A stretch of 54,985 bases of DNA from Candidatus Thorarchaeota archaeon SMTZ1-45 (GTDB taxonomy: Archaea; Asgardarchaeota; Thorarchaeia; Thorarchaeales; Thorarchaeaceae), in assembly GCA_001563335.1 (NCBI GenBank), contig LRSL01000033.1:1-54985 (forward strand), written 5' to 3'. Both the position numbers and the translations under genes were made by a program. The first letter of the stretch is position 1. Each line of letters starts with the position of its first letter. A model generated the notes under the pieces. The model was not told where the DNA came from and did not search any database. It saw only the letters and a list, made by a program, of their open reading frames with translations. Below, piece by piece: positions 2 through 37,069 of this stretch.

Positions 2-2623
2 CTCGAGCTAGACATAGGTACGGACCCATTGCTTAATGATACCGACTCAGATACCCTTTCAGACTGGGAAGAGTGGATTCTCTATGATACCGACCCCACA
101 GAGGCGGACAAGGATCAAGATGGACTTAATGATGCAGAAGAGATAGAGAATGGTACAGACTGGGAAAACTGGGACACTGATTTCGACACCATCAGTGATG
201 GAGATGAAGTGAACATCTATGAAACATCACCAATCAACGATGACACTGATGCGGACAATATCGCTGATGCAGATGAATTGTTCAATAGTCATACTAATCC
301 TCTATTACTTGATACAGATGGGGACACAATACCTGACGACTTGGATGACCAAGATGCGGATGGACTCAACAATCATGATGAGATTTACCTTTACGAGCCA
401 AACTGTACAATGATTGACTCTGACTTGGACTTGATTAGTGACTACGATGAGGTATTTGTCTGGGAAACATCACCTAACAAGTTTGACAGTGATGATGATG
501 GTCTTGGAGATTGGGATGAACTCTTCTACTGGTCGAGTGACCCCAATGACAGAGATAGTGATAATGATGGTTTAGAAGATTCAGAGGAAGCGCTTACATG
601 GCACACTCTATTGAATAGTACAGACACAGATTCAGATAGTCTTTCTGACTACGATGAGATTAAGGTGTTCGAAACAGACCCCTTGCTCTTTGATACAGAT
701 GGTGACTCCCTTGGAGACGGAGATGAACTTAACATCTACAACACATCACCCTTGCGAAAAGATACAGATAGTGACAAACTTCTCGATGGGCAGGAGATAA
801 ACGGCTTCTATATGACCTTCAATATAAGCGGTGTCATCAGCAGCAGATGGGTCTACACAAACCCAAGAGTGAGCGACACCGATAAAGACACGCTCACAGA
901 CTTTGAAGAAGTAAATAGGACGAACACAGATCCAACGCTCTACAGCACTCAGGGAACCACAGTATCAGATGCAGATTGGGATATTGATGGCGACCTCCTG
1001 ACTAATGCGCAGGAAATCCGACTCACGAGAACAAATCCACGAGTCTATGATACCGATTCTAATGGCAAGTCGGATGGTGCTGATGATGAGGATAGAGACC
1101 TTCTCACGAACTACTGGGAGTGTGTCCTGACCAAGACTGATCCCAGAGATCCAGATAGTAACGATAATGGCATATCCGATTACAACGACGATGAAGATGG
1201 TGATACACTGTCAAATGGGGAAGAGTGCAAGATCTATGGAACTGACCCAAGACACAGAGATAGTGACCGTGACGGACTCTATGACAACGAAGAGGTTGAG
1301 GACTGGGGGACTGACCCACTCAATAAAGACAGTGATTTCGATGGTCTAGAGGATGGTCCTGAGGTCAACACATGGGGGACCATGCCTGACTCTAATGACA
1401 CTGACTTAGATTGGCTCACTGATTATGAGGAAGTTATCCTGACAAACACAGATCCTACAACCAACACGACCTACGGTGTCACATTGGACAGAAACTATGA
1501 CAGTGACTCTGACGGACTCTCCAATTGGGATGAGCTGAGGGTCTACTTCACACTCCCCAACGACCCTGATTTTGACAATGATGATCTCATTGATGGTCTT
1601 GAGATTACTTTGGGCACACTCATCAATGGCACGGACAGCGACTCTGACATGTTGACTGATGGAGAAGAATACATTCTCTATGGTACTGATCCATTGGAGC
1701 CGGACAGTGACTTAGACGGACTCAGCGACTTCGAGGAAGTGTTGGTCTACGATACGGATCCGCTGGTTGAGGACAGCGATGAGGATGGCATCAGTGACTA
1801 TGATGAGGTCTGGGCTGTGAACCCACTGGGCATAGCTACTAACCCGCTAGAAGATGATGGAGACTTCGATGGGTTGAGTGACTATCAGGAACTTTTCGTT
1901 ACACCATACTCAGACCCGACCACCCCAGATAGTGACTCAGATGGACTTGACGATTACGAAGAAGTCACAGCATACTTCACTCATCCAATGAACAATGATA
2001 CGGATTCAGATCTCTTGTCAGATGGAAATGAGGTTTTCGTATATCAGACGAACCCAAGAAACCCAGACAGTGATCAAGATGGCCTAGATGACTATACAGA
2101 GGTCATGGTTCTAGGAACAGACCCTAACAATAGAGATAGTGATGCGGATGGTTTGCTTGACGGACAAGACTTTCTACCTCGTATCCACTGGATATTCCCA
2201 ATTGCGGGTCTCATTGTGCTCGCTTTCGTGGCGGCTTTAGGTATAAAACGGTACAGAGAAACTCATATGGTGGAGGAGTATGTGACCAGAGCAGAGCCTG
2301 CGAGCCTTGGGCTTGAGCCGGGCATGGACATCGTAGTAGAGTACAAGATCCGGGACGGACGGGTCATCTTTGGCGTGGTCGTGAGGAATGGTGCAAAGAA
2401 TGCCATGCATAATGTGCAGGTGATACTTGGTGTGCCAGATTTGACTGATCAAATCAAGACACAGAACCTTGGCACAGTAGAGCCGGACACGGTTTCAATA
2501 GTGCAGATCGAGTTCGAGCTGCAGCCTGGAGCTGAGGGCGAGCTCGTTGGCATGGTAGAGTACGACAGCGTAGAGGGCGAGCACAGGATAGTGAACCTGA
2601 AACCTGTCAAGATTGTCGCATAG
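2..2623 (+). CDS. Ca2+-binding acidic repeat (thrombospondin type 3-like DxDxDG) membrane protein with C-terminal beta-sandwich domain; 5'-truncated by the window edge
   Basis: The frame is open from position 2 (LELDIGTDPLLND...), so the gene starts upstream of the window. It has many imperfect T[DN]P..xD[ST]DxD(G)LxDxxE repeats, a TM helix IHWIFPIAGLIVLAFVAALGI followed by KRYR, and a ~120-aa beta-rich tail. Confidence 0.85.
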   Translation, partial: LELDIGTDPLLNDTDSDTLSDWEEWILYDTDPTEADKDQDGLNDAEEIENGTDWENWDTDFDTISDGDEVNIYETSPINDDTDADNIADADELFNSHTNPLLLDTDGDTIPDDLDDQDADGLNNHDEIYLYEPNCTMIDSDLDLISDYDEVFVWETSPNKFDSDDDGLGDWDELFYWSSDPNDRDSDNDGLEDSEEALTWHTLLNSTDTDSDSLSDYDEIKVFETDPLLFDTDGDSLGDGDELNIYNTSPLRKDTDSDKLLDGQEINGFYMTFNISGVISSRWVYTNPRVSDTDKDTLTDFEEVNRTNTDPTLYSTQGTTVSDADWDIDGDLLTNAQEIRLTRTNPRVYDTDSNGKSDGADDEDRDLLTNYWECVLTKTDPRDPDSNDNGISDYNDDEDGDTLSNGEECKIYGTDPRHRDSDRDGLYDNEEVEDWGTDPLNKDSDFDGLEDGPEVNTWGTMPDSNDTDLDWLTDYEEVILTNTDPTTNTTYGVTLDRNYDSDSDGLSNWDELRVYFTLPNDPDFDNDDLIDGLEITLGTLINGTDSDSDMLTDGEEYILYGTDPLEPDSDLDGLSDFEEVLVYDTDPLVEDSDEDGISDYDEVWAVNPLGIATNPLEDDGDFDGLSDYQELFVTPYSDPTTPDSDSDGLDDYEEVTAYFTHPMNNDTDSDLLSDGNEVFVYQTNPRNPDSDQDGLDDYTEVMVLGTDPNNRDSDADGLLDGQDFLPRIHWIFPIAGLIVLAFVAALGIKRYRETHMVEEYVTRAEPASLGLEPGMDIVVEYKIRDGRVIFGVVVRNGAKNAMHNVQVILGVPDLTDQIKTQNLGTVEPDTVSIVQIEFELQPGAEGELVGMVEYDSVEGEHRIVNLKPVKIVA

Positions 2624-2635
2624 TGAATCGATAGT

Positions 2636-3037
2636 TCACCTAGCATCATTTGTCCACGAATGGACATTCTTATTTAAAATATCATAACCTGTCTTGAGGC
2701 TCGCAAGTATCTCAATGATACAGAGAAGAAGAATCACAATGAGCCCACCAATAAGAGGAACGTTACCAGAATATGAAAACACAATGAATAGCAATCCTAG
2801 GCTCATTAGAACACTCCATCCGTATCCCACCTGTTGCCACCGTTCCCTTGGAATCCAGAGAAAGAGGAGTCCTATAAGATCTATGAGTCATATCAAGAAA
2901 GATAATGTTTCAAGTGCACCTATATACCAGTAAGCAGGAAAGAAGAAAAAAAACATGCTGAATAAAACAGCATCTCGAGCGAGATGTGTACTTCGTATGA
3001 CTGTGAGTGATGTATTATCTTGACCTTTGGACAACAT
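2636..3037 (-). pseudogene. small multi-pass membrane protein interrupted by one in-frame TGA
   Basis: ATG at 3037 reads MLSKGQDN...YWYIGALETLSFLI, then TGA (2890-2888), then continues in the same frame as LIDLIGLLFLWIPRERWQQVGYGW... into the 2636..2830 ORF. Confidence 0.6.
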
Positions 3038-3246
3038 GTAAAATTCCCCTCATGATTTTACTTTTCTCGAATGAATATAAAGAGGATTCACATTTTTGGT
3101 AGATGCCAGACAATTCTTATGAAAAGTTGTTCAGACTAGTGAGGCTGAAACCAGTGAGGATTATCACATAGTTATCTCAGCAATTCATTAGACATGGAAC
3201 AAAGAATCGCATTACTTAAGGGTCGGAGCAGTTTGTAGAATAGACC

Positions 3247-3933
3247 ATGTCGCTAGAGATCTTTAGTGTAATCTTTTGGGTCTTCGCAATAGTTTCTACA
3301 TACCTACAGGACAAAGCCTCAACAGGTGAAAAAAAAGTCGTATCCCTGACCACCCTGATTAAAATCATTCCAGCATTAAGTGCGGTCATCTTTGTTATGC
3401 TCTTTCGACCACCGACGCTATTCACCATCCTTCTGGCTGCTGCATTCGCTTTCTGTATGTTTGGAGATGTTGGGATGGAGGTTGACCTCATTCCGGGGAT
3501 AGGTATGTTTCTCATTGCTCACATTCTCTACACGATAAACTTCCTATGGCATATTAGCACAATAGGGTTCGACATACTCCAAGCAGTAATTGCTGTAGTT
3601 TGTATGTTAATCATGGTGTTGTATGTCTTCATGTTAATCAGATATCTTCGTGCCTCAGGTCCGGAAGTTCCACCCTTCATTTTAAAAGCTGGGACTTTGT
3701 ATTTCCTATTAATCTCTGCAACACTCAGTTCTTCCCTCCTACTCTGGTTGACCTCCAATGTTATTTTTGGAGCCCTTTCTGTCTTTGGTGCACTTATCTT
3801 CATAGTTTCAGATTCATTGATCGCGATTAACGAGTTTCGTCAAGAGATAACACACCATGAGTTTTACATCATGCCAACATATTATCTAGCAATCTTCCTC
3901 CTTTCGCTAGGTGTATTTGTATTTGCATTCTGA
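3247..3933 (+). CDS. lysoplasmalogenase / YhhN (TMEM86) family membrane protein
   Basis: Multi-TM protein with motifs K..P, FGDV, GIGMFLIAHILY, GALIFIVSDSLIA and PTYYLA, typical of YhhN. Confidence 0.85.
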   Translation: MSLEIFSVIFWVFAIVSTYLQDKASTGEKKVVSLTTLIKIIPALSAVIFVMLFRPPTLFTILLAAAFAFCMFGDVGMEVDLIPGIGMFLIAHILYTINFLWHISTIGFDILQAVIAVVCMLIMVLYVFMLIRYLRASGPEVPPFILKAGTLYFLLISATLSSSLLLWLTSNVIFGALSVFGALIFIVSDSLIAINEFRQEITHHEFYIMPTYYLAIFLLSLGVFVFAF

Positions 3934-4003
3934 AAGAAACAAGGTGAATATCAGTTCCAAAGTTTGATAAGACTAAAGACCCTCACAGGCTGAGGGGACA
4001 GCT

Positions 4004-5266
4004 TTGAACAAAGACGAGCTGCTGGAGACAATTGATGCCAAACTGGACCAGCTTAATCCTGAAGAACTGATCAGTCCAGAGAGCATGCGACCAATTGCCA
4101 TTAAAACACGAGAAAGAAGGCAGCTTGCAGAACTCGAGAGAGAATTACTACAGACACTCGAGGAGATAAAGTCAGACAAGCGAGTTCCAAACATTATAAC
4201 GCGATTAGCCAATGTCTATCTTAAGGAGGCTTCATTTAGCAGGGCAATTGTCCTATACGAGCTGACATTGGGACTTGATAGCAAACAGGTCAATGCATGG
4301 ATAAACATGGGTCAGGCATATTTGAAGATATCAAGCCCAGTAGAAGCTATCAGTTGCTTAGGTAGTGCTTTGGCGATGGATCAGAGAAATGCCTTAGCAA
4401 TGGTCTTTTTAGCTACAGCACAGTTGAAGCTGGGAGAACTTGAAGAAGCAAACAAGAACTTAGACCGCGCCATATTCATTAATTCTAACATGACTCGAGC
4501 ATTGCTCGGAAAAGGTGAGTATTTTCGGGCAAAGGGAGAGCTTGATGTAGCTGTGACGTGGTTGCGGCGTGCTCTATCTATGGACCCCAACTTTCTGCCA
4601 GCGCTAATGGAACTTGGTAGTGTGTATCTTGCCCTCAAGAGATATGAGGAGGCAGTTGAAGTACTAAATAAAGCTCTCAAGTTAGATCCAAACCAACCAT
4701 TTGCGCTTTCTACGATGGGGGACGTCTATTTTGAATTGCATGAGCTAGAGTCAGCCCTATATTATTATGATAAAGCAGTGAGTATCAAGTTTGATGATCC
4801 CGAACTGTGGATTAAGAAAGGTGATATCCACAAGGCGTTGAAGTCATATCAACAAGCATCCAATGCTTATCAAAAGGCAATCAATGCAGATCCTGAACAT
4901 GTGGAGTCTTGGGTTAAAAATGGAGCAGTAATGCTTCTTCTTGATGATGAAGGAACAGCTTTGGAATACCTCAACACCGCGCTTGCTCTTGATCCAACGA
5001 ATGCAGAGATAGCTTACCAGAGAGGGCTCATATACTATTCTCTGGAAAGATACGAAGAAGCATTTGCTGACTTTGATGCTGCATTTTCACTTAACCCTAG
5101 TAATCCAGAGAATCTCTACTATCGTGCAATGATGTTGGAATTGCTCGACAGAAAACCTGAAGCAAGACGAACATGGACTGTTGCGCAGCGGCTATACGAA
5201 GAGATTGGCAATGTCACAAAAGTAGCAGAATGCAAGGTGAGGATTAGACGACTAGTTCAGACTTAG
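4004..5266 (+). CDS. tetratricopeptide repeat protein
   Basis: About 9-10 consecutive TPR-like units, e.g. ALMELGSVYLALKRYEEAVEVLNKALKLDP. Confidence 0.9.
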   Translation: MNKDELLETIDAKLDQLNPEELISPESMRPIAIKTRERRQLAELERELLQTLEEIKSDKRVPNIITRLANVYLKEASFSRAIVLYELTLGLDSKQVNAWINMGQAYLKISSPVEAISCLGSALAMDQRNALAMVFLATAQLKLGELEEANKNLDRAIFINSNMTRALLGKGEYFRAKGELDVAVTWLRRALSMDPNFLPALMELGSVYLALKRYEEAVEVLNKALKLDPNQPFALSTMGDVYFELHELESALYYYDKAVSIKFDDPELWIKKGDIHKALKSYQQASNAYQKAINADPEHVESWVKNGAVMLLLDDEGTALEYLNTALALDPTNAEIAYQRGLIYYSLERYEEAFADFDAAFSLNPSNPENLYYRAMMLELLDRKPEARRTWTVAQRLYEEIGNVTKVAECKVRIRRLVQT

Positions 5267-5350
5267 GGAAAAATGACTTATGGCACAGGTATAAATCACC
5301 ATCAGGGTTATTAATCAAGAGTGAGCAAAATCTGACGGCACTGAGGAAAA

Positions 5351-6352
5351 ATGACGGAAGACTACGAAAGACTAGTCAAGAGAAACGGACGCAAGGTGAA
5401 ATGGAGTGAGTTTGTTGGTTCTACCACATTTATTGAGTCAAAGAACCTTGCAAGACATGTAGGCTGTGAAAGACTATATCTGAAATTTGAGGGAGGGAAT
5501 CCGACCGGCACACAGAAAGACCGTATTGCTCTTGCTATTATGGACGCAGCTAAACAGAAAAATGCCAGTGCAGTCACTACAGCCACCTGCGGTAATTTTG
5601 GAGCCGCACTGGCATGGGCGGCAAGAGTTTTTGATATTCCAGCTCATATCTTTATCCCAGAGGGATATCATGTACCAAAAGATCGAATGAAGCGAATCAA
5701 AGAAACTGGTGCGCAGCTCCACTTCGCACCAGGTCAATATGAGGACCTCGTTGAACTATCAAAAAAGACTGCAAAAGAGGAAGGCTGGTTTGATGCAAAT
5801 CCAGGAGTGGATGGTGTCAAGGAGATTTCTATAGAAGCGTATGCTGATATTTCACAGGAGATATACCGAGATATTCGAAGAGCTCCCAATTTTGTCTTTG
5901 TGCCTGTAGGAAATGGAACAACAATAGCAGGAATTCACATGGGATTTAAGCGATTATATGAGGCGGGTAAGATTCAGTTTCTGCCAAGGATGGTAGCTAC
6001 GAGTACTCGGCGGGGTAATCCAATTGTGAAGTCATTCAAGTTGAATAGTCGAAATATTCAAGACCTTCGTAGAGATGAAATCAAAGAAACCAAATTCAAT
6101 GAACCTCTCACCAATTGGCATGCATATGATGGTCAAGAAGCCTTAGATGCCATCTATGAATCAAAGGGATTTGCTGATTATGCCTCGGAAAGCAAAATGG
6201 TCGAGTTTTCAAAACTACTTCGTCAGGAAGAGGGTCTCTATGTCCTTCCTGCAGCAGCAAGTACACTTGCTGTTATGCATGATCTTGCAGATGACAAAGT
6301 CACAATGAAAGGAACCTTTGTTGCAATACTCACAGGTAGAGATTTTGAATAG
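5351..6352 (+). CDS. PLP-dependent fold-type II enzyme, threonine-synthase-like
   Basis: LYLKFEGGNPTGTQKDR (PLP lysine), TATCGNFGAA and VPVGNGT phosphate loop. Confidence 0.85.
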   Translation: MTEDYERLVKRNGRKVKWSEFVGSTTFIESKNLARHVGCERLYLKFEGGNPTGTQKDRIALAIMDAAKQKNASAVTTATCGNFGAALAWAARVFDIPAHIFIPEGYHVPKDRMKRIKETGAQLHFAPGQYEDLVELSKKTAKEEGWFDANPGVDGVKEISIEAYADISQEIYRDIRRAPNFVFVPVGNGTTIAGIHMGFKRLYEAGKIQFLPRMVATSTRRGNPIVKSFKLNSRNIQDLRRDEIKETKFNEPLTNWHAYDGQEALDAIYESKGFADYASESKMVEFSKLLRQEEGLYVLPAAASTLAVMHDLADDKVTMKGTFVAILTGRDFE

Positions 6353-6360
6353 AACTAGAA

Positions 6361-6876
6361 TTAGAGTGTAAGACTCATAGTGATATTACCATCATCTTCA
6401 ATACGTAGAACCTTAAAACCAAATGTTTCATAGAATCTCTGCAATGGTATCCCTACCTCATTCTCAGCCTCAGTGTCGAGCTCTATCGCATCATATCGAT
6501 TTAATTTAGCCCATTGGATTATGGAGTTTAGAACGATTCTCCCAATACCTTTGCCCCTTGTTCTAATAGCAAAGGTATCCAAATAGAATGTACTTCCTTC
6601 TTTTCTTTTAACAGGGTAACCTAAAATAACACCTTCAGAGCGTTTATTCAGAATTATGAATAGAAGTAGCACATTCTCCTCAGTCATTCTTGTTTGGAGT
6701 TCCTCAGTACTATATCGAAGAGACTCTCTAAATGAGTGTGCCTCAATATCTTTGAACAATCTTTCATATTGATCAGACCATGATTTTGCCATGACAACAC
6801 GCAAATCATCTCCTAAGAGTGGGAGGAGTTGGTCTTTCATATTCTCCCAAACATTTTGAGGGAACGATGAGTTCAT
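6361..6876 (-). CDS. GNAT family N-acetyltransferase
   Basis: Motif A TRGKGIGR and C-terminal LQRFYETFGF. Confidence 0.85.
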   Translation of the reverse strand: MNSSFPQNVWENMKDQLLPLLGDDLRVVMAKSWSDQYERLFKDIEAHSFRESLRYSTEELQTRMTEENVLLLFIILNKRSEGVILGYPVKRKEGSTFYLDTFAIRTRGKGIGRIVLNSIIQWAKLNRYDAIELDTEAENEVGIPLQRFYETFGFKVLRIEDDGNITMSLTL

Positions 6877-6899
6877 AGATTGGTGCCTCGCTCAGAGTA

Positions 6900-7895
6900 C
6901 TATTTTTTCAAATCATATCTATGGGCAGCAGAATCCATGATTCTCTGGATTAATTGGTCATAGGTATAACCAGACTTCATCGCCATAAATGGGTAAAATG
7001 ATATGTCTTGGTTATCTGGATCAAAGTCCATTCCAGGTAGCGGGTTGATTTCTAAGAAGTATAGCTGTTCGTCTTCATCCATTCTATAATCAATTCGTGC
7101 AAAATCTGGAACTTCGAGTAATTCACAAATTTCAATTGAAACCTTCTCGATTTTTCTTTTCAGGTCTTTTCGGATTTTTGCAGGACATATGTAATGGTCC
7201 AGTCCTTCATAGATTGTCTTGGCTTTCTGTCCGTAGACTCCAGCAATTTCTGATGGAAACTTCGAGAAATCTATCTCCAATATAGCAAGAACATCAGGTT
7301 TTGAACCAAGACAATCTAAGACACCCACGCTAAACTCGCGTCCTTGGATGAATTGTTCGGCCAAAATTGGTTGTTTATACTCCTGTAGCATAGCTCCCAG
7401 TTTCTTGATAAGTTGCTTCCTGTCATAGACAACATTATCCTCATTAATACCCACTGAAGATCCTTCTTCATTGGGCTTTAGTATGACAGGATATTTGAAT
7501 ACAAGTTTGCTAACTTGCTTAGTGCTGGATAGAATGTTGAACTGAGGAGTCAAAATATTGTGGAAAGATAAGAACTTCTTAGTCCAACCCTTATTCAAAC
7601 AAACTGCAGTCGAGAGAACATTTGCGCCAACATATGGAATTCCTAGCATCTCCAAGATAGCAGGAATGTGAGATTCTCGGCTCTCACCACGGACACCCTC
7701 AGCTCGATTGAAGACAAGATCTGGCTTGACTTGCTTCAATGTTTCAAGTATGTTCTCATCTGCTTCGATGAAAACATAGTCATGACCTCCTGATTCTATT
7801 CCATGTTTAATCATCTCAATTGTATGAGGCGGGTCATATTCTACTTCGAACTCTGATTCATCTTTTCGTGTGTTTAAGACTAGTGCAACTTTCAT
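6900..7895 (-). CDS. D-alanine--D-alanine ligase family ATP-grasp enzyme
   Basis: LEMLGIPYVG, CLNK, PVILKPNEEGSSVGI, EQFIQGREFSVG, ARIDYR and FLEINPLPG. Confidence 0.9.
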   Translation of the reverse strand: MKVALVLNTRKDESEFEVEYDPPHTIEMIKHGIESGGHDYVFIEADENILETLKQVKPDLVFNRAEGVRGESRESHIPAILEMLGIPYVGANVLSTAVCLNKGWTKKFLSFHNILTPQFNILSSTKQVSKLVFKYPVILKPNEEGSSVGINEDNVVYDRKQLIKKLGAMLQEYKQPILAEQFIQGREFSVGVLDCLGSKPDVLAILEIDFSKFPSEIAGVYGQKAKTIYEGLDHYICPAKIRKDLKRKIEKVSIEICELLEVPDFARIDYRMDEDEQLYFLEINPLPGMDFDPDNQDISFYPFMAMKSGYTYDQLIQRIMDSAAHRYDLKK

Positions 7896-7970
7896 TGAAT
7901 ATCAGCATAGGAATCATGCACATTTCTGTTTAAATTTTTGATACATTCTCAAATTTACCATTTTAATGGC

Positions 7971-9338
7971 CTATAGTTCAAAAGAATCAATCTCCTCTTT
8001 GAAAATAGACATGACCCTATCTTTCAAATCAGCTGGTATACTAATAGGGTCGTAGAGAGTGATGAATTTCTTGAAGAGTTCATCCTCGCGAGCTTGAGCT
8101 TCCTCATACAGTTTAGATGCCTTGAATTCTTCGACCAAGTCGCCTTTTACATTTTTCTTAACAGCAGAGTAAAATGCGAATAACTGTTCATCCATTGCAG
8201 TTTCCGAGAGAAGATAGGTCAGTGTTGTTTTCCCACCAAAGAGTGTAAAGCGATTCTTATGTTCTCTATTGAGCATGTTTTCGTGGAACCCTATTTGACT
8301 AGGGTCAATCCCTCCACCCGCACAGAGGAGGTACATCTTACCACAAATTGTGCAATGATGACACCACCTATAGTCTCGGCCTGCTTCGGTTTCTGTAAAG
8401 CAGCTCATCTGGTATTTCGCAATGTCTGGATATCGATGAGCAAGAGTTCGCTGTACCATCATATCCATCAAGGGTTCAATCAGACTTCCTGTTCCAACAG
8501 ACCGACCTGAGAACATCTTTGTCATTTGATCAATGTGCACAGTCCAATTATGAGTCTGGTCCCAGCAGGGATTCACAAGCCATCCATACTTGTCCATGTA
8601 GGTTGCAGATGTTGTTTGTTCGTTTCCAAATAGGATATACTTCCCTTGGAGCGCATATGCAAGCGGAATACATTCCAGAGCATATTCTGTAGACTGTAGA
8701 GCCCAACCAAACTCAGAGAAGGGAAGACCAAGGTAGGGATAATCTCGGAGCTTTCCGGTTTCATGTTCTATTATATGAAGGTCTTTGTTGAACTCTTTCT
8801 TGAACTGCTCAGCCAATGCAGTCTTGTGTTTCTCCTCGTATGTCATGCTATGTTCAACAAAGTAAGCCATTTCTGGATCAAGTTCCAACTCTCGAGCAAC
8901 TGCATATGTGAGAAGACTATCCTTTCCAAAACTCATACCAACGATTGCCCGGAATCCATCCTCCACAGTTTCATCAGATGGAATCTTAATGACCGGGTCT
9001 AAGAATCGGTATTGTGTATTAAAGAACCTGCGTACATATTCTACCGTATCAGTTCCGTCGACCTCAGTACAGGAGGGAATATCCCGAAAGAAATTTTCCA
9101 CAAAATACGATTCCAAGAAAGGGCGTCCTGAATGGTATACAATCTCGGGAATGTCAAAGACTATCGGGAGATGCATTGTGGTAGCTAAAGCAAGATTATC
9201 CGTAAGCGCGAGTCTTGTTTGCTCTGGTGTCTTTTCCCAATAGTTTTGTGGGTATGTTACAGGCAAAGAGTCGTTTTTGTATACAACAGCGAACCCATTT
9301 TCTATTTGTTTCGAATGTATCTCGAGCATGACAAGCAC
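7971..9338 (-). CDS. MurL-like PP-loop ATP-dependent peptide epimerase homolog
   Basis: SFGKDS PP-loop, FGNEQTTS, VNPCW, SLIEPL, QMSC and RWCHHCTIC occur in the same order as the MurL motifs I recall (GGGKDS, FSNExSAS, VNHQW, SLLRPL, FSSC, RWCxxCPKC). Confidence 0.7.
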   Translation of the reverse strand: MLVMLEIHSKQIENGFAVVYKNDSLPVTYPQNYWEKTPEQTRLALTDNLALATTMHLPIVFDIPEIVYHSGRPFLESYFVENFFRDIPSCTEVDGTDTVEYVRRFFNTQYRFLDPVIKIPSDETVEDGFRAIVGMSFGKDSLLTYAVARELELDPEMAYFVEHSMTYEEKHKTALAEQFKKEFNKDLHIIEHETGKLRDYPYLGLPFSEFGWALQSTEYALECIPLAYALQGKYILFGNEQTTSATYMDKYGWLVNPCWDQTHNWTVHIDQMTKMFSGRSVGTGSLIEPLMDMMVQRTLAHRYPDIAKYQMSCFTETEAGRDYRWCHHCTICGKMYLLCAGGGIDPSQIGFHENMLNREHKNRFTLFGGKTTLTYLLSETAMDEQLFAFYSAVKKNVKGDLVEEFKASKLYEEAQAREDELFKKFITLYDPISIPADLKDRVMSIFKEEIDSFEL

Positions 9339-9390
9339 AAACTGACTTGGTGATGTCTGAATAACTGTTGTTGTATTGAATTAAACGCAC

Positions 9391-10077
9391 CTATTCGGAC
9401 CTTTTTTCCTGATCAAATGATTTGTTTTCTTCTTCTTTTGCTTTCTTCTTTTTAGCTTCCTTCTCTTTTTCCTTCTTCGCTTTTTCAAGCGCTCTAAAAT
9501 ATGCAGTCATTTTATCGTCAAGTGTGATGATATGGTGTACATCAGAGAATATCGATTTCAGGACATGTTCAAAGCTAAAAAAGAACAGTAACAAGATAGT
9601 AAGGTAGAAAACAATCATTGCAAAGAACACGTAAAAAAGTAGTTCAAGTAGAGCAGTATTAGGACCAAAACTTACCAAAGCAAACGATACCCCTTCATAC
9701 CATACGATCTGGCTGATTGCAGTGGCAAGATAGCCAAACATTAATGCAGAGAGTCGAAGTACTCGCTTATAATTCAGAAATCGGTCTGTTTCAAACTCAG
9801 GGATTAAATGAATTCTGTTAAGGTATGGAATGAACTCCGTACGATACCAATTAATTCCAGGGAGAATTGCATAGAAAAGACCTGTTCCTGAGAGTAGGAT
9901 AGGAGTTAGTACACCGGGCCCAACACACCAGAAGAATAATCCTTCAAAGAAGCTAAGAGTAGATATGATGGCACATACAACAAGGTGCGCAAAAAAAACA
10001 TAACCTTGGTAGGAGTCGGGTTTGGATGGTTCTAGATTAGACCAATCGTATTCGTTTTGGCCATCTAATAGATCCAC
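9391..10077 (-). CDS. hypothetical membrane protein (about 4 TM) with Lys/Glu-rich C-terminal tail
   Basis: 228-aa ORF with hydrophobic segments and the tail EKAKKEKEKEAKKKKAKEEENK. Confidence 0.7.
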   Translation of the reverse strand: MDLLDGQNEYDWSNLEPSKPDSYQGYVFFAHLVVCAIISTLSFFEGLFFWCVGPGVLTPILLSGTGLFYAILPGINWYRTEFIPYLNRIHLIPEFETDRFLNYKRVLRLSALMFGYLATAISQIVWYEGVSFALVSFGPNTALLELLFYVFFAMIVFYLTILLLFFFSFEHVLKSIFSDVHHIITLDDKMTAYFRALEKAKKEKEKEAKKKKAKEEENKSFDQEKRSE

Positions 10078-10160
10078 TTCAAACCCTCAAATGATTCAGG
10101 AGAGGTTCTCACCATGCACCTTTCAAGTTATTGAGTACCTACACCTATACCTGAAGAATT

Positions 10161-10193
10161 TGAGAAAAAGAGAGAGGAGGGGAAATCCCCCTC
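10161..10193 (-). terminator. probable terminator of the 13534->10201 operon
   Basis: GAGGGG-aaatc-CCCCTC hairpin (10177-10193), followed on the minus strand by a pyrimidine/T tract (CTCTCTCTTTTTCTC), just after the stop codon at 10201. Confidence 0.5.
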
Positions 10194-10200
10194 ACTAGTA

Positions 10201-10953
10201 CTATGTGAAGATGGCTGAGATACCACCAGTGGTTGTTTCAATAATGACGGTTAGTGTCTGTGATGCTGTGTCATAATCCGAGGATTCGTAGTGGTTCGAT
10301 GTAATCTGCGTCCAACCGGCTGCAGTAATATCAACACTACCAGTTGTAACAGCACATTCCACGCTACCGCCAACTCCACTTGGAACATCCACTACTACAC
10401 TAACTCCGCCAGTAGTAGTGTCAAGATTAAATGTAGCATTTCCAAGTAAGACCACGTCATCGGTCATCACTAGTGAAATTCCACCAGTTACTGTTGTGAG
10501 TGCAATATCACCAACATGTGCACCGTTGAGCAAGTTGACATTGATTCCTCCTGTAGAAACATCAACATCCAAAGTGTAGTTCACACCACTTCCAAGAGTG
10601 ATGTTCACACCAGCAGTAGTATAATCGAGCCGAATGGTATTGCTCGAGAATGTGACTGAGGGTGTACCATCTATTTCGAGTGTGGTATTCTGAACCTCGA
10701 TGTCAATATCGTAGAGTAGTGATGCATTATCAACGAATGTTATCAATATGCCGCCTGTAGCTAAATCAATATCTAAGTTCACTGTACCTGTGGTGGCTCC
10801 AACTTCTGCTTCGAAGGAGAAGTCAGTAGTAGCTAAATTCCAGTTAAACCAGTTAGTGCCGAAGTAGGATAAAGCTCCCACAGCAATTGCACCTACGATT
10901 ATAACTGCAAATATACACACAACCATACTTGTGTTTCTCTGATAATTACTCAT
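10201..10953 (-). CDS. membrane-anchored DUF4097/adhesin-like beta-strand repeat protein
   Basis: N-terminal TM followed by repeated (L/V)x(T/S)(T/S)GG(I/V)x(I/L/V) units. Confidence 0.75.
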   Translation of the reverse strand: MSNYQRNTSMVVCIFAVIIVGAIAVGALSYFGTNWFNWNLATTDFSFEAEVGATTGTVNLDIDLATGGILITFVDNASLLYDIDIEVQNTTLEIDGTPSVTFSSNTIRLDYTTAGVNITLGSGVNYTLDVDVSTGGINVNLLNGAHVGDIALTTVTGGISLVMTDDVVLLGNATFNLDTTTGGVSVVVDVPSGVGGSVECAVTTGSVDITAAGWTQITSNHYESSDYDTASQTLTVIIETTTGGISAIFT

Positions 10954-10956
10954 TGT

Positions 10957-11583
10957 TTATTCACCTTGTCTGTGAGACTGTAGAAAAGCGTGCCAATTCT
11001 TTCTCAAGTCTCGATATTGCGAATCTTCTTCCAGAGCGAAGCGACGCATGATTCGCGATGCATCGCCTCGTATTGAGGAGGGCAATTTATCAAGGCGCTC
11101 CTCATTCACAACAAGATTGCGAGAAGTTAGCTCATTCTCGCGATTTATCAACGCCGTCAGTAGTTCCACAGCCTCGCCAATCTGATCCTCTGGAATATCT
11201 ATACCATAGACTGAGAGGCTTTTAATTATGGATTTCAGACGCTTTGTTGTATCATCCCCAGTAGCCTGTATCATTTCACTGATACCCATCCTGTACTCGC
11301 GTGCAGAAGCACGATAGTACCGCTGAACAATACCAGTCTGGGTCTGTTCTGTTCGTTCTTCGAAGACAAGACCAACTTCTTTCAACTTCTGAATATGATG
11401 AAGTATAGTACCAGGATTTTTCCCAGTCACTTCTGAAAGCTGTTTTACTGTCATCGAGTCTTTCACGAGATAGTCAAACACTATCTTAGCTCGGGTTGGC
11501 TCCATGAGTAGCTTGATTAGATTCTTGTCTTCAATGACCTCCATGTCCTTGATTCGTTGTTTTTGTTTCTTGGAGCCGTTCAC
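10957..11583 (-). CDS. ArsR-like winged helix-turn-helix transcriptional regulator
   Basis: LMEPTRAKI...MTVKQLSEVTGKNPGTILHHIQKLKEVGLV...IVQRYYRA. Confidence 0.9.
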   Translation of the reverse strand: MNGSKKQKQRIKDMEVIEDKNLIKLLMEPTRAKIVFDYLVKDSMTVKQLSEVTGKNPGTILHHIQKLKEVGLVFEERTEQTQTGIVQRYYRASAREYRMGISEMIQATGDDTTKRLKSIIKSLSVYGIDIPEDQIGEAVELLTALINRENELTSRNLVVNEERLDKLPSSIRGDASRIMRRFALEEDSQYRDLRKNWHAFLQSHRQGE

Positions 11584-11585
11584 TG

Positions 11586-12536
11586 TTATAATCCTCCTAT
11601 AAAACTGGGACCAACTTCATCCTCACTATTCATTGGGATAAGATCATCATCATCTGCTGTGAGAATCATGTAGACTCTTGTGAGACCTATGGAAAGCGCA
11701 GGTAAGACTACGAATGCCAAGAGGAGGCTCATTATGACAGCATAGATTCCTAGTGGTACCAATGCAAGAATTTGAGTTGTAAAGAAAGGAATCGCCATTA
11801 TGAACAATGGTGAAGCAAGAACAACTATTAGCAATATATAAGAGAGCCAAGTGCCAAAGACACGGTCGAAATATTTGATACCCATTTGGATTGACTTCTT
11901 TGTTGCTTCAACAACAGAATAGCCATCGATAATTGCAGGGAACAGCATTGTCATGAGTCCAGTGCTCAATACAAACCAGACTATACCTAGTACAGAAATT
12001 AGTGGATTCATGATATTTGAAGACCCAACACCTATGAAAGCAACATTGAGAATTTGTTCTCCAAATAGAGTTACTGCTGCTAAGATCACTATCATGACTG
12101 GTCCCAGAATGAAAAGGAACAGCATAATTCCACCACCTGCCAGGGAGAAGAACTTCTTTCTGTACCAGGTAAAGACGCCCTCCGCAGAAGTTCCTTCACT
12201 CTCCACAATCTCTCTTGACATTCCAAAGAGTGCACCGCTAGCTACGAAGAATGGAGCAACAAATGGCAGCGCAATCAGGAAGATACCAGTTGCGATTGTT
12301 ATACCACCAGTTGTGAACCACGATTCCAGTGACTCAGCCCAGATTGTGAATGCTTGGAGCCCCCCAGGCGATATCACAATAGGAATGAAGATGAATGCAG
12401 CAACTATACCAATCAAGATGATTGTAACTAAGAAGACTCCAATAATCGCAAGCACATAGGAGATCACGTTTCTGAGTGCAAACCTAATGCTGATCTTCAG
12501 GTCTTCCACAATTGTTTGAAAGCTCGCTTTTTTCAT
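11586..12536 (-). CDS. hypothetical polytopic membrane protein (paralog of 12614..13534)
   Basis: About 6 TM helices. Shares D(L/M)KxS, GxxxGMS, AE..F..(Y/F)RxKFxSxAGxG, S.....YFDRV(F/Y)G and xVY with the neighbouring gene. Confidence 0.8.
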   Translation of the reverse strand: MKKASFQTIVEDLKISIRFALRNVISYVLAIIGVFLVTIILIGIVAAFIFIPIVISPGGLQAFTIWAESLESWFTTGGITIATGIFLIALPFVAPFFVASGALFGMSREIVESEGTSAEGVFTWYRKKFFSLAGGGIMLFLFILGPVMIVILAAVTLFGEQILNVAFIGVGSSNIMNPLISVLGIVWFVLSTGLMTMLFPAIIDGYSVVEATKKSIQMGIKYFDRVFGTWLSYILLIVVLASPLFIMAIPFFTTQILALVPLGIYAVIMSLLLAFVVLPALSIGLTRVYMILTADDDDLIPMNSEDEVGPSFIGGL

Positions 12537-12613
12537 TATTTTTCACACCTGGAAATATTGAGGGAGAGTATCTTGAAAGTTGTCCTTCAAGACACTCTCC
12601 AAGTTCATCGCAC

Positions 12614-13534
12614 CTACACGATGGGCATATCAACAACGCTCTGCGTTGCTATCTCTCCACCAGTGAGTTCTTGGTAGACCTTGACCCAGACGATCCTTAC
12701 CATTGGTAAGAACAGGAGAAGCCAGAGGAGCACCATAATCACAGTATAGAGACCAACACCAACAATAGCTGGGATGAATACCAGAGTGACTGGTGGAATG
12801 AAATCTGCCATAGCAAGAGCTGCTATGACAAGAGGACCGAAGGTGGCGGCTAGCAGAAGCACGATGGCTGTCAAGACTCCGTAGACACGATCAAAGTACC
12901 GGGTGGATAGAGAGAAAGAGTCCTTGAAAGCTTCCTGAACTCCCTTGCCACTGGCTACTGCAGGCCAGACCATTGAGGTCAAACCAGCAGTAATGTAAAC
13001 CCACACAAATGTGAAGGTCGTGAGGACATAGGTGGCTGGCGCGGTGATTGCGTAACCCATCGCATAGGAGGTTAGACCCCAGGCGATGGTGGGTGGTAGT
13101 ACGACAATAATTGTAAGAATTGCACCAGTGCCTGCAAAGGAGAGGAACTTGTGTCTGAAATAGGAGAATGCAAGCTCGGCCTTGGTTTCGCCCTTGGTGA
13201 CTAAGTCATGACTCATCCCATAGATAGAGCCGCTGACGACCAAGAATAATGAAACAAGTGGAATCAATACTAGGATACCAATTCCTCCAACAATGAGAGG
13301 ATTGACTGCAGCCCAATTAGCCAGAGCAGTCATTGTGGCTTCGGAGAATGGCGCGAGAACTACCCATGCTACAATGAGCACAGGGATTGCTACGATCCCA
13401 AGAAGGATCACCATGACAATCAACATGCCTAGATTCGCAAGGAAGTAACTTAGCATGCTCTTCCAAGCAAGTTTAAGGCTCGTCTTCATGTCGTCAAGAA
13501 TTGTACCGAAAGTTGTAGACATTGTATACACCAT
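12614..13534 (-). CDS. hypothetical polytopic membrane protein (paralog of 11586..12536)
   Basis: Same motifs and TM pattern as the adjacent gene. Confidence 0.8.
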   Translation of the reverse strand: MVYTMSTTFGTILDDMKTSLKLAWKSMLSYFLANLGMLIVMVILLGIVAIPVLIVAWVVLAPFSEATMTALANWAAVNPLIVGGIGILVLIPLVSLFLVVSGSIYGMSHDLVTKGETKAELAFSYFRHKFLSFAGTGAILTIIVVLPPTIAWGLTSYAMGYAITAPATYVLTTFTFVWVYITAGLTSMVWPAVASGKGVQEAFKDSFSLSTRYFDRVYGVLTAIVLLLAATFGPLVIAALAMADFIPPVTLVFIPAIVGVGLYTVIMVLLWLLLFLPMVRIVWVKVYQELTGGEIATQSVVDMPIV

Positions 13535-13545
13535 ATTATTATCGG

Positions 13546-13635
13546 CAAACGCTTAGCTTGTTACTTACCAAACGTTTGACACATATCAAACTATAACTCA
13601 TACCCTTATAAATTGTTTGGTAAACGCCAAACGTT
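13546..13635 (-). promoter_or_regulatory. archaeal promoter (TTTATAA box at 13612-13606) flanked by repeated CAAACG operator-like sites
   Basis: CAAACGCTT 13546-54, palindrome CAAACGTTTG 13569-78, GTTTGG-n6-CCAAAC 13615-32, and TTACCAAAC 13565-73 inverted against GTTTGGTAA 13615-23. Confidence 0.55.
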
Positions 13636-13666
13636 ACAACGACCATCAAACATACAGGTCTGTGAT

Positions 13667-14587
13667 CTACATCTTTGCAGAATTGACCATCCCGATGAGT
13701 TTCGCATGTCTATAACTTGAGAAGTACTGGTGATGCCCGCTGATCAAGACTTTCACACTTGTCACATGCTCATTCTTCCTAATAGAGCGAACGATTTCAA
13801 TGAGTTCGGTGATATCATCAGCTACCAAAAGTGCGTAAATCACTGGTTCAGAAGCTGATATGTAAGTTTCTCTATGATGGATAGGATATTCCTTCTCTAG
13901 CATATCCGCGATTGTTGAATACTTAGCTGTTTTTTCATTCCAGAGAATCCGCACTATGAATGGCAGACTCGTGCCAGCTCCCAATTCAACCAAAGCAACA
14001 AAACGGAGTGCGTTATTCTCTTCAAACTCTCCAATCAGCCTTCTCACTCGTCGCGCAGTCAGTCCTGTCTTCTGTGCAATATCAACTATTGGAAGTCGCG
14101 GGTCCTCTAAGAGCGGTTCTAAGATGCGAAGATGAGTCTTGGTAAGGTTCATCTTTGCGCCCCAAGTTCCTATGATTGTATGTAATTCTGCACTGATAAC
14201 ACTATCAAGTGTTCGAAGGAACGACCCAAGCTCCTGTAATTCTTGTGGTCCATGGTATTCTGCCACAAGAGCATAGGTGCCATCAGTATAAGATGAGGCC
14301 GCCATAACATACTTGCTTGATCCAATTTCCTCAACCATCTCAACTTCATCTCTTGAACCATCAGTCGATAAGAGACCGAAGAGAAAACCTGTGCCAGTCA
14401 TTGCAGGAGACATGAAAATGGAATAACCAGAGATGATTCCATTTTCTTCCAGATTCAAAATACGACGACGAATCGCATTGGCTGAAATACCATACTTTCG
14501 TGAGAGCTCTTGGTAACTGAGTCTGCAATTTCGTTGTAAGTCAGTTAGTATGTTCTTGTCCATTTCATCCAAGATGTACACATCCAC
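13667..14587 (-). CDS. Lrp/AsnC family transcriptional regulator with two tandem HTH-RAM units
   Basis: LDEMDKNILTDLQRNCRLSYQELSR...GIISGY, and a second unit LTKTHLRILEPLLEDPRLPIVDIAQKTGLT. Confidence 0.85.
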   Translation of the reverse strand: MDVYILDEMDKNILTDLQRNCRLSYQELSRKYGISANAIRRRILNLEENGIISGYSIFMSPAMTGTGFLFGLLSTDGSRDEVEMVEEIGSSKYVMAASSYTDGTYALVAEYHGPQELQELGSFLRTLDSVISAELHTIIGTWGAKMNLTKTHLRILEPLLEDPRLPIVDIAQKTGLTARRVRRLIGEFEENNALRFVALVELGAGTSLPFIVRILWNEKTAKYSTIADMLEKEYPIHHRETYISASEPVIYALLVADDITELIEIVRSIRKNEHVTSVKVLISGHHQYFSSYRHAKLIGMVNSAKM

Positions 14588-14811
14588 GCTTTCTCAGCAA
14601 TCGGTTGAAGACACTTTAACCTCATCAAATGAGCTAGACTGTGAGATTTATGCATTCCTAACTAAGTGTAGATTATGTAGATTAGCACCCTAGGACATGC
14701 TTGATACAGTCATTACTACAACTAGTTTCAGTAGTTCACAGCCAACCTAAAAGAGCTAGTCTGGGTACGAGAGGTTGAGTTAAATTGGTAAATTAGAATC
14801 TGAAATGTGAA

Positions 14812-15468
14812 ATGACTCGGAATCTCGAAGATTTGCATATACACTCCAACTACTCTGATGGAGTTTCTAGTGTTGGAGAGATTACTCAACGAGCTGCGTT
14901 TCTTAAACTAAAGACGATTGCTATTGCTGATCATTTTTGGCCATCATTGGGTTCTCGAAAGGGTGGAATAAACATCATCGAACAGAGACGTCATGAGATT
15001 GAAACTTGCAGAGATGACTATCCAGAACTGAAGATTCTCGATGTTGCAGAAGTTGACATTCAGTCAAATGGAGAGCTTGCACCTGTTGCTGGTGGGCTTG
15101 AGCAATTCGATCTAATCATAGGGTCGTTCCACTGGTTCACTGATTCCACAAGGTGGGTATCAGCTCTGGTTCAAGCATTGAGAAGGAAAGAGTTTCAGAT
15201 TCTCGGACACTGGGACGGCTATCTCTCCTCTTACAGAGAGGAGGATGGGAGAATTGCGGCGGAGGCGCTCGCGGAAGCAGGTGTCGCAATTGAGCTGAAT
15301 GGTAGATACTCAGTTGAGCATATTGGTTTTCTAGAACTAGCCAACGCGTATGGGTGTTCCTTCACACTTGGCAGTGATTCACATCATGTGAGCACAGTTG
15401 GAGATCTTGACTTCCAAGAGAAACTTGCAACAAGCATGAATCTTAATCTAATGAAAGTGAACCTTTAA
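14812..15468 (+). CDS. PHP domain phosphoesterase (YcdX/HisJ-like)
   Basis: Metal-binding motifs DLHIHSNYSDG, IADH, GSFH, ILGH, IELN and GSDSH. Confidence 0.9.
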   Translation: MTRNLEDLHIHSNYSDGVSSVGEITQRAAFLKLKTIAIADHFWPSLGSRKGGINIIEQRRHEIETCRDDYPELKILDVAEVDIQSNGELAPVAGGLEQFDLIIGSFHWFTDSTRWVSALVQALRRKEFQILGHWDGYLSSYREEDGRIAAEALAEAGVAIELNGRYSVEHIGFLELANAYGCSFTLGSDSHHVSTVGDLDFQEKLATSMNLNLMKVNL

Positions 15469-15548
15469 GGCGAGCATGGCAGGGGAATTGGCAAATCCAG
15501 AAGCCTTTTCACTTGCATAGTACAGAGTTTAATTATTGGAGATGATTA

Positions 15549-33139: not shown

Positions 33140-33188
33140 CAGTGCCCGCTCGGGGAGCCGATATACAAAAGCGTTTGGGAATGCATCC

Positions 33189-34073: not shown

Positions 34074-34084
34074 GAATTCACCTC

Positions 34085-36999: not shown

Positions 37000-37069
37000 T
37001 CCATTATCGAGGAGAGTTTCTCCAAAAGAACATAAGACGGGCGTGCATAGAATAGTGTGGTTGATTGTA

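Follow-up and report, generated by a model that had tools for sequence, protein, structure and literature searches.

What might a relative of the peptidoglycan epimerase MurL and a relative of D-alanine--D-alanine ligase (Ddl) make together in an Asgard archaeon, on a stretch of DNA that carries no murein synthesis genes? The question is raised by four open reading frames (ORFs) at positions 5351 to 9338 of contig LRSL01000033.1 (assembly GCA_001563335.1) of Candidatus Thorarchaeota archaeon SMTZ1-45, of which we analyzed positions 1 to 54,985 of the forward strand, all 54,985 nucleotides of which are here called the window. A three-gene unit on the minus strand begins with a MurL-superfamily enzyme with a predicted QueC-like PP-loop core and a four-cysteine motif (7971 to 9338, 455 amino acids [aa]), continues with a Ddl-family ATP-grasp ligase, predicted to form amide bonds (6900 to 7895, 331 aa), and ends with a GNAT-family N-acetyltransferase (6361 to 6876, 171 aa). 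A fold-type II pyridoxal phosphate (PLP) enzyme of the threonine synthase (ThrC) superfamily (PRK06381 family; 5351 to 6352, 333 aa) lies on the plus strand, convergent with the other three. The spacers are 75 nucleotides (nt) (7896 to 7970), 23 nt (6877 to 6899), and 8 nt (6353 to 6360) long, the last one separating the convergent stops of the PLP and GNAT genes. In the ORF listing, these positions and gaps are exactly those of an earlier note on this DNA, which had proposed a peptide-building cluster of linked genes; the MurL-like gene probably begins at the ATG at 9329, which is the fourth codon of the listed ORF. Its statement that Mur ligase, MraY, MurG, and alanine racemase genes are absent from the window also holds, as none of them was found when 44 window ORFs (13 ORFs plus 31 ORFs of at least 120 aa) were scanned against Pfam. 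We give an even chance to the reading that the four genes form one self-contained, horizontally mobile module for a small, modified, peptide-like metabolite and are no remnant of murein synthesis.

Genetic linkage speaks for this reading. With one genome taken per species, a degenerate-pattern scan turned up 353 proteins related to the MurL-like protein, of whose loci the best 80 (numbered with the prefix L), all derived from metagenome-assembled genomes (MAGs) and labeled by their record titles, were analyzed. Loci with at least 1.3 kb upstream and at least 4.2 kb downstream of the MurL-like gene were regarded as assessable, and partners were sought by tblastn with the window proteins together with clustering of the 1163 ORFs from the 80 loci. 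Among the 65 loci from Asgard archaea, Bathyarchaeia/Thermoproteota, Spirochaetota, and unlabeled records, 47 are assessable, and 44 of these have all three partners beside the MurL-like gene (Asgard, 22/22; Bathyarchaeia/Thermoproteota, 13/16; Spirochaetota, 5/5; unlabeled, 4/4). The PLP gene is linked in 46 of the 47 assessable loci and, with truncated contigs counted, in 56 of the 65, and the ligase gene adjoins the MurL-like gene in 62 of the 65. For the 15 loci of other lineages, the corresponding figures are 0/10 assessable loci with the three partners and 8/10 with a Ddl-like gene, the ligase being adjacent in 10 of the 15. Only four gene families are common across lineages, namely, the MurL-like, Ddl-like, PLP, and GNAT families. 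The arrangement is thus far beyond chance. The earlier note had staked the functional link on co-occurrence in other genomes, and the 44 of 47 loci bear it out, as does the existence of single ORFs with Ddl-like and GNAT domains (L051, L055, and L057).

The order of the genes differs between lineages. In most Asgard and Bathyarchaeia loci, the PLP gene lies downstream and convergent, and in 7 of 8 spirochaete loci, both Borrarchaeum loci, and some Bathyarchaeia loci, it lies upstream on the same strand; in L045, a locus on a complete spirochaete chromosome, the four ORFs each overlap by 4 nt. In a quick maximum-likelihood tree, the outgroup part of which has long branches, the PLP-linked MurL-like proteins form one clade (60 rows, SH-aLRT 98), within which the spirochaetes are monophyletic (99) and the Bathyarchaeia stand at two places, one of them nested among Asgard archaea. 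The module has therefore been transferred as a whole across phyla and domains. The window contig itself is archaeal and not, as the earlier note had considered, bacterial with a normal mur pathway: the closest homologs of the 455-aa and PLP proteins (85 to 95% identity) come from Thorarchaeota, Sifarchaeia, and "Promethearchaeota" MAGs, and the window is free of mur genes. Of the notion of an archaeal module, its presence in Asgard archaea stands and its restriction to an archaeal lineage falls, the module occurring also in Bathyarchaeia and the bacterial Spirochaetota. The MurL-like protein is 56 to 89% identical across Asgard phyla and Bathyarchaeia, and the GNAT is the least conserved partner (24 to 67%). 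One locus titled "Actinomycetota bacterium" (L026) carries a module almost identical to that of the Bathyarchaeia locus L025 and is therefore probably misbinned.

Is the first gene of the unit an epimerase gene of the MurL kind, as its name in the earlier note implied? By sequence, the 455-aa protein is related to MurL at the superfamily level. It matches the NCBIfam model MurL_Xanthmoales with 23.2 bits (E 2.1e-5; cut-off, 700), residues 227 to 340 lying co-linear on positions 223 to 339 of the 447 of the model, and 67 of 102 full-length family representatives match the same model weakly (best E 3.3e-12). In the Atlas, the clusters closest to the protein (score 0.97) bear the name MurL, and 20 to 80% of their members carry the Pfam-38 families MurL_N and MurL_epimerase_C (PF26298 and PF26299). 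These two families were not returned by the Pfam copy used to scan the window protein, in which the protein had no match even at an E value of 10 (QueC, PF06508, included). With no Pfam match and 23 bits against a cut-off of 700, "MurL-like" therefore denotes remote homology only: the superfamily relation stands, a close relation to MurL does not, and the fold is QueC-like. The MurL-like family is small: within 1.8 billion representatives, it accounts for 280 clusters at 50% identity.

The fold was approached by structure prediction. An AlphaFold2 model of the MurL-like protein built on the 102-sequence alignment is confident (pLDDT 96.9, pTM 0.95), and Foldseek against the PDB returned QatC (9y01_B; E 2.4e-5; aligned over the full length) and QueC (3bl5_A; E 3.3e-4; target-normalized TM 0.69; and 2pg3; TM 0.60; probability 1.00), followed by Cap9 and then TtuA, phosphoadenylyl sulfate (PAPS) reductase, NAD synthetase, TilS, and N-acetyl sugar amidotransferase. 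Judged from these neighbors of the model, the core of the protein is therefore a QueC-like PP-loop ATP pyrophosphatase. Closer inspection of the alignment agrees with this assignment. The nucleotide-loop motif S136-F-G-K-D-S141 has the SGGxDS-type form of QueC-like PP-loop enzymes, with Phe in place of the second Gly, and a putative metal site is formed by the zinc-type cysteine motif C313-(x12)-C326-xx-C329-xx-C332, with x12 where QueC has x8; excerpts of a survey of the QueC family give the QueC motifs as SGGxDS and C(x)8CxxCxxC (PMC13329287). S136, G138, K139, D140, and S141 (five of the six loop positions, F137 being the sixth) and C313, C326, C329, and C332 are invariant in 18 close homologs; G138, C313, C326, and C329 are invariant in the 102 representatives, at least 90% of which also keep K139 and S141. 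Weak Pfam matches to QueC, PAPS_reduct, and PP-loop families occur in 9 of the 102 relatives (QueC in 6), and weak NCBIfam matches to TtuA and WbuX occur among the family representatives. At the level of sequence profiles, an hhalign comparison of the family with Escherichia coli QueC was nonsignificant (probability 3.8%, E 0.011), yet co-linear over the cysteine motif, and searches of PDB sequences with the protein and with an 18-sequence profile gave no meaningful relative. Compared with QueC, QatC, and Cap9, the window protein shares the core fold and the S-x-G-x-D-S and CxxCxxC-containing motifs but lacks a Pfam QueC match, has additional N- and C-terminal domains, and has no 7-deazaguanine genes nearby. 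Longer, fused forms of the MurL-like protein were not found in a search that gives weak evidence only. In one MAG, a single 803-aa open frame spans the MurL-like and Ddl-like genes (L004:10001-12412), which arose either by natural gene fusion or through an error of sequencing or assembly.

The nearest precedent for the MurL-like step is the alternative D-Glu route of Xanthomonas, Micromonospora, and relatives. According to excerpts of two papers (PMC5808125, PMC8788868), MurL needs ATP and Mg2+, releases AMP, and epimerizes the C-terminal L-Glu added by the ligase MurD2, and it is described there as being "without known conserved domains." The AMP-forming chemistry of MurL would be explained by the placement of its superfamily on the QueC/PP-loop fold. 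As in the window, a ligase gene lies beside the gene of a MurL-superfamily enzyme of about 450 aa, and by analogy with MurL, which in these sources inverts the residue just added by its ligase, the window protein may act on the product of its neighbor. The differences are that the ligase of the module is of the Ddl-type ATP-grasp family and not a Mur ligase, that PLP and GNAT partners are added, that the MurL-like gene is paired with no MurD2 or other mur gene within the window, and that archaea are among the hosts, the window being free of mur genes. Unless the genomes make UDP-N-acetylmuramoyl dipeptide, of which the window gives no sign, this compound cannot be the substrate.

The ligase keeps, by sequence, the catalytic set of Ddl but is no orthodox Ddl. 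It matches Pfam Dala_Dala_lig_C with 113.9 bits (cut-off, 24), its best PDB relatives are Ddl enzymes (89 to 75 bits), and hhalign aligned 20 members of its family with E. coli DdlB (probability 99.9, E 3e-36) from DdlB residue 24 on. In this alignment, from which the DdlB numbers were counted, K140, S147/S148, K226, and R267 of the ligase correspond to K144, S150/S151, K215, and R255 of DdlB, and D269, E282, N284, and S299 correspond to D257, E270, N272, and S281, residues that we take to have catalytic and carboxylate-binding roles in DdlB. The ATP-grasp fold, the catalytic Lys, Arg, Asp, Glu, and Asn, and the Ser-Ser loop are thus common to the window ligase and the Ddl/Van ligases. What sets it apart is that it falls below every Ddl cut-off in NCBIfam (best, 182.4 bits; cut-off, 243), that Y216 of DdlB is replaced by Thr227 and L282 by Phe300, that a 6-residue insert precedes S299 (Ser281 of DdlB), and that there is no murein context. 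Furthermore, the N-terminal 35 columns, with the region of Glu15 of DdlB for the first substrate, are unaligned, and the ligase family has conserved N-terminal residues of its own (N8, E19, D21, and T25).

The third catalyst, the PLP enzyme, raises the question of whether it is simply a threonine synthase. It matches Pfam PALP with 187.9 bits, and NCBIfam PRK06381, named "threonine synthase," with 369 bits (cut-off, 266). TIGR00260 (thrC) is missed with 95 bits (cut-off, 167), and four other ThrC equivalogs stay far below their cut-offs. The best solved relatives are ThrC enzymes (2zsj, 2d1f, 1uim, and 6cgq; 115 to 73 bits), the protein has the length class of short bacterial ThrCs, and the PLP lysine, K56, is kept in the motif N-P-T-G-x-x-K-D-R. 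The segments S-T-G-N-T, N-S-V-N-P-x-R-x-E-G-Q-K-T, and G-N-A-G-N, present in all four solved ThrCs (in the Thermus enzyme, S84-T85-G-N-T88, N154-S155-V-N-P-x-R160, and G-N-A-G-N), are not kept and read T-C-G-N-F, D-G-V-K-E-I-S-I-E-A-Y-A-D, and G-N-G-T-T in the window protein. T88, N154, S155, and R160 of the Thermus enzyme presumably bind the substrate phosphate; the alignment confirms their numbering, not their role. The PLP family of the module has its own invariant signature over 52 sequences, in which the position equivalent to T88 is variable, and its gene is linked to the ligase module and not to thrA or thrB. Against PRK06381, the module copies of spirochaetes and Borrarchaeum reach still higher scores (423 and 373 bits), and therefore this model probably describes the enzyme of the module rather than proven ThrCs. 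The PLP enzyme belongs to the ThrC branch of fold-type II but, judged by its motifs, is not an ordinary ThrC, which speaks against the true-ThrC option that the earlier note had allowed for. Its likely task is to provide or remodel an amino-acid building block.

The GNAT is a generic member of its family. It matches Pfam Acetyltransf_1 with 30.8 bits (cut-off, 20.7), its best PDB relative is BH1408 (28 bits), and its Atlas neighbors are generic GNAT clusters only, mostly from Bathyarchaeota. The rimI model is matched weakly (19.4 bits, E 9.3e-4; cut-off, 86.4).

Do the more distant MurL-like proteins tell what the module may do? Outside the PLP-linked clade, the relatives (33 to 40% identity) come from DPANN, Methanosarcinales, Gammaproteobacteria, and Saccharibacteria MAGs and lie in loci without PLP and GNAT genes. 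With one exception, L063, which lies on a short contig, the MurL-like genes of the 15 loci (14 of 15) adjoin a gene for an amide-forming or N-acylating enzyme, which is Ddl-like by tblastn in 10, a KamA-Ddl fusion in 1 (L066), and DUF1611/DgcN-like in 3 (L052, L058, and L065). Five loci (L064, L066, L067, L069, and L078), from DPANN, Methanosarcinales, and a gammaproteobacterial MAG, have a KamA-family radical-SAM (S-adenosylmethionine) aminomutase instead of the PLP enzyme, together with one or two MurL-like and one or two Ddl-like genes (e.g., L069:5493-11368). A single ORF of 685 aa encodes both aminomutase and ligase in L066 (sister module, L066:6557-8614). The aminomutases score above the KamA-family cut-off and just below the cut-off for lysine 2,3-aminomutase, with glutamate 2,3-aminomutase close behind. 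The gammaproteobacterial or Enterobacteriaceae labels of L070, L074, and L078 are MAG titles alone; L078 has bacterial FtsW and Fpg genes. An 88-aa ORF follows the sister module in both L066 and L069 and is conserved between them; it encodes a hydrophobic membrane protein. A small carrier protein was considered and rejected, these two ORFs being membrane proteins and the other small ORFs not being conserved.

A second kind of neighborhood involves DgcN-like genes. In the DPANN loci L052:1305-5909 and L065:167-4774, tandem MurL-like genes are followed by a DUF1611/DgcN-like gene and then a DapF-like gene, which passes the DapF cut-off in L052; the L065 copy is placed with it by the common ORF cluster only. 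L058:9968-12431 has only one MurL-like gene, with a DUF1611 gene after it. The DUF1611 proteins reach 152 to 179 bits against NCBIfam DgcN, below its cut-off of 480. Within the PLP-linked clade, a Heimdallarchaeota MAG has two genes inserted between the GNAT and PLP genes (L034:12997-15274), one for a beta-lactamase-family (AmpH/D-aminopeptidase-like) protein and one for an enolase of the o-succinylbenzoate synthase (OSBS)/N-acylamino-acid racemase (NAAAR) type (menC_lowGC_arch, 286 bits; cut-off, 200.65).

From the families to which the proteins belong, the fold, the retained catalytic residues, and the linkage of the genes, we infer an order of steps, their substrates, a D configuration, and a physiological role as follows. 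The ThrC-like PLP enzyme, its ThrC-type phosphate pocket lost, would make or reshape a nonstandard amino acid; in the sister modules, a KamA-type aminomutase would supply the unusual amino acid in its place. The Ddl-like ligase would then couple two amino acids via an acyl-phosphate. The MurL-like enzyme would adenylate the new C-terminal carboxylate, and the activated, N-acylated residue might be epimerized to the D form, by analogy with MurL acting after MurD2; amidation or ring closure is allowed equally by the QueC-like fold. Activated N-acyl amino acids racemize easily via oxazolones, as is known from general peptide chemistry, and this would explain why MurL-type enzymes always stand beside an N-acylating partner. 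The GNAT would acetylate the free amine. A D residue in the product is plausible on the strength of the MurL analogy. Among the 80 loci, the module has no conserved companion gene for a deacylase, peptidase, exporter, small carrier, or target and, because there is no conserved exporter, an intracellular solute or precursor seems more likely than a secreted product. A further-reaching claim, which we regard as possible but on the whole doubtful, is that the MurL superfamily is a general device outside peptidoglycan that ligates and then adenylates and inverts. Jointly with this, the product in Asgard archaea, Bathyarchaeia, and spirochaetes would be a free N-acetylated dipeptide, the C-terminal D residue of which arises after ligation and one amino acid of which comes from a repurposed ThrC, and the sister modules of DPANN, Methanosarcinales, and some bacteria would proceed in the same way with beta-amino acids from KamA-type aminomutases.

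Several observations weigh against a biosynthetic module with a D-configured product. At 23 bits, the protein resembles MurL only weakly, and not one of the 102 representatives comes near the 700-bit cut-off. The D residue is a conjecture, since the solved QueC-fold enzymes amidate, thiolate, or conjugate and do not epimerize, and, for all four proteins, product and substrates are deductions. NCBIfam names the PLP enzyme threonine synthase above its cut-off, and the phosphate role of the missing residues is presumed. Three of the 47 assessable loci are incomplete: L010 has the ligase only, L032 has a fragmented ligase and no GNAT that could be found, and in L054, no GNAT was found; a profile search for the missing partners in these three loci recovered none, so that the GNAT can be dispensed with or replaced. 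A clue to the ligand is given neither by a transporter or regulator conserved with the module in the 80 loci nor by a riboswitch in the window or in seven spirochaete loci. Lastly, the insert of L034 fits D-amino-acid salvage as well as synthesis.

How far do other explanations account for the same data? It is imaginable that the MurL-like enzyme amidates the dipeptide C terminus with ammonia or closes a ring, which would yield an all-L N-acetyl dipeptide amide, a solute like N-acetylglutaminylglutamine amide (NAGGN) made by nonhomologous parts. The structural neighbors QueC, QatC, Cap9, NAD synthetase, TilS, and N-acetyl sugar amidotransferase all bring a nitrogen or sulfur nucleophile to an activated carbonyl (for QatC and Cap9, excerpts of the literature), and the NAGGN pathway, as outlined in excerpts of PMC8070244, combines the same three activities, with Ngg for acetylation and peptide bond formation and AsnO for C-terminal amidation; the module likewise has enzymes predicted to N-acetylate, to form a dipeptide at the expense of ATP, and to activate the C-terminal carboxylate, and its Ddl-GNAT ORFs parallel the bifunctional Ngg. 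The parts would not be homologous, however, AsnO amidates with glutamine, and NAGGN synthesis has no PLP enzyme and is known from bacteria. No glutaminase partner is present, the nearest characterized family by sequence is MurL, an epimerase, and neither the ligase's NCBIfam matches (the best 25 of 42) nor the two GNAT matches include a name of the NAGGN type, so that we consider amidation or cyclization unlikely, if worth keeping in view. The main rival of a different kind is salvage: incoming D-amino acids or D-containing dipeptides from necromass would be N-acylated by the GNAT or the ligase, and the MurL-like enzyme would invert them irreversibly at the expense of ATP, following the logic of the DgcN/DgcA and N-succinyl-amino-acid racemase pathways, in which N-acylation is coupled to inversion of configuration. 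DPANN relatives pair MurL-like genes with DgcN-like DUF1611 genes (plus DapF in L052), the Heimdallarchaeota module holds AmpH/D-aminopeptidase-like and OSBS/NAAAR-type genes, the host lineages are sediment heterotrophs, and excerpts of PMC12363236 present dgcN as the key gene of an irreversible, energy-costly racemization pathway. Against this, it is not evident what the ATP-grasp ligase and the ThrC-like enzyme, the most constant partners, would do in a catabolic inversion, the module lacks a conserved deacylase or peptidase, and the L034 insert is a single locus. The known routes, moreover, use ATP-free racemases of the enolase superfamily, without ligase or PLP enzyme, and run from D to L; MurL, according to excerpts of PMC5808125, works from L to D only. 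Salvage thus appears rather improbable to us.

The product need not be a small molecule at all: the enzymes could modify a macromolecule, such as a protein C terminus or an envelope polymer, in the manner of RimK and RimI on ribosomal proteins, and no free metabolite would arise. The weak rimI match of the GNAT points this way, as do QueC-fold QatC and Cap9, which according to excerpts of the literature act on protein termini, and the tandem MurL-like and tandem Ddl-like genes of some distant loci would suit a stepwise extension. A carrier or target gene conserved with the module is missing, however, the ligase is of the Ddl and not the RimK type, and no PADLOC defense model matched, which makes such a role very unlikely. 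The last finding also bears on antiphage defense of the Qat or type IV CBASS kind, a candidate prompted by the QatC and Cap9 fold matches and rejected: the MurL-like, Ddl-like, and PLP proteins matched no PADLOC model, and the GNAT gave sub-threshold noise only. Finally, the PLP gene could be a housekeeping threonine synthase gene that stands by chance beside an unrelated three-gene unit. Its PRK06381 score (369 versus 266), the name "threonine synthase" carried by its homologs in JGI, and its opposite strand in the window would agree with this. The linkage in 46 of 47 assessable loci, over two domains of life and in three arrangements, including the overlapping spirochaete operon, the absence of the ThrC-invariant N-S-V-N-P-x-R-x-E-G-Q-K-T segment, the scores far under the cut-offs of TIGR00260 and other ThrC equivalogs, and the higher PRK06381 scores of module copies speak so clearly against it that we consider chance neighborhood highly implausible. 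A module of four cooperating enzymes for a peptide-like metabolite remains the reading that we prefer.

The surroundings of the module belong to the lineage. Locus L001, which comes from a Thorarchaeota MAG, shares synteny with the window along some 12 kb (4696 to 16088 of its 16.4 kb). Upstream of the module, on the same strand, lies a gene for a 228-aa multipass membrane protein with a Lys/Glu-rich tail (9391 to 10077); the region up to 13534 also encodes, on this strand, a protein with a LiaF C-terminal domain, an ArsR-type regulator, and paralogous hypothetical proteins of 306 and 316 aa. Beside the PLP gene (29 to 5266) are genes for a TSP3-repeat protein, a YhhN-family membrane protein, and a 420-aa TPR protein; the TSP3-repeat protein, of at least 864 aa, runs off the start of the window and is, in other Thorarchaeota loci, part of a far longer repetitive gene. 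Membership in the module was rejected for the membrane protein and the LiaF-like, ArsR, TPR, YhhN, and TSP3 proteins, which accompany it in Thorarchaeota-like loci only, and likewise for the two paralogous hypothetical proteins and an Lrp protein on the MurL-like side. No tRNA, riboswitch, or other Rfam family was detected in the window, and seven spirochaete loci gave one tRNA only. Farther away, the window encodes a tetrahydrofolate C1 cluster (formiminotransferase-cyclodeaminase, FolD, and formate-tetrahydrofolate ligase; 31568 to 35686) and, near it, a protein like the RuBisCO large subunit (37043 to 38383), as well as an aldehyde:ferredoxin oxidoreductase, a set that suits a Thorarchaeota/Sifarchaeia-like Asgard archaeon. 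A 2295-aa ORF with Ig-like domains (Big_1 and Big_3_5) and a prenyltransferase-type alpha-alpha toroid domain (46734 to 53621) probably encodes a surface protein.

A couple of a ligase and an ATP-dependent MurL-type enzyme is of a known kind; its context and its partners are new. A literature search for this module or for MurL relatives outside peptidoglycan returned nothing beyond MurL reviews, and a term search of the main text of the 2026 QueC-family survey (PMC13329287) gave no occurrence of MurL. Automatic resources already label some archaeal members "MurL family."

In sum, the MurL superfamily is much wider than peptidoglycan synthesis, and a module exchanged among Asgard archaea, Bathyarchaeia, and spirochaetes points to a metabolite that matters in anoxic sediments and that may be a D-amino-acid-containing or amidated N-acetyl dipeptide. 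The names "threonine synthase" and "D-alanine--D-alanine ligase" on these genes are likely to mislead when the metabolism of these uncultured lineages is reconstructed. The module is small enough for direct expression and reconstitution. If its enzymes indeed ligate, adenylate, and invert, this would be the first role of MurL-type enzymes outside murein and would add a new D-amino-acid metabolite to the archaeal relatives of eukaryotes.

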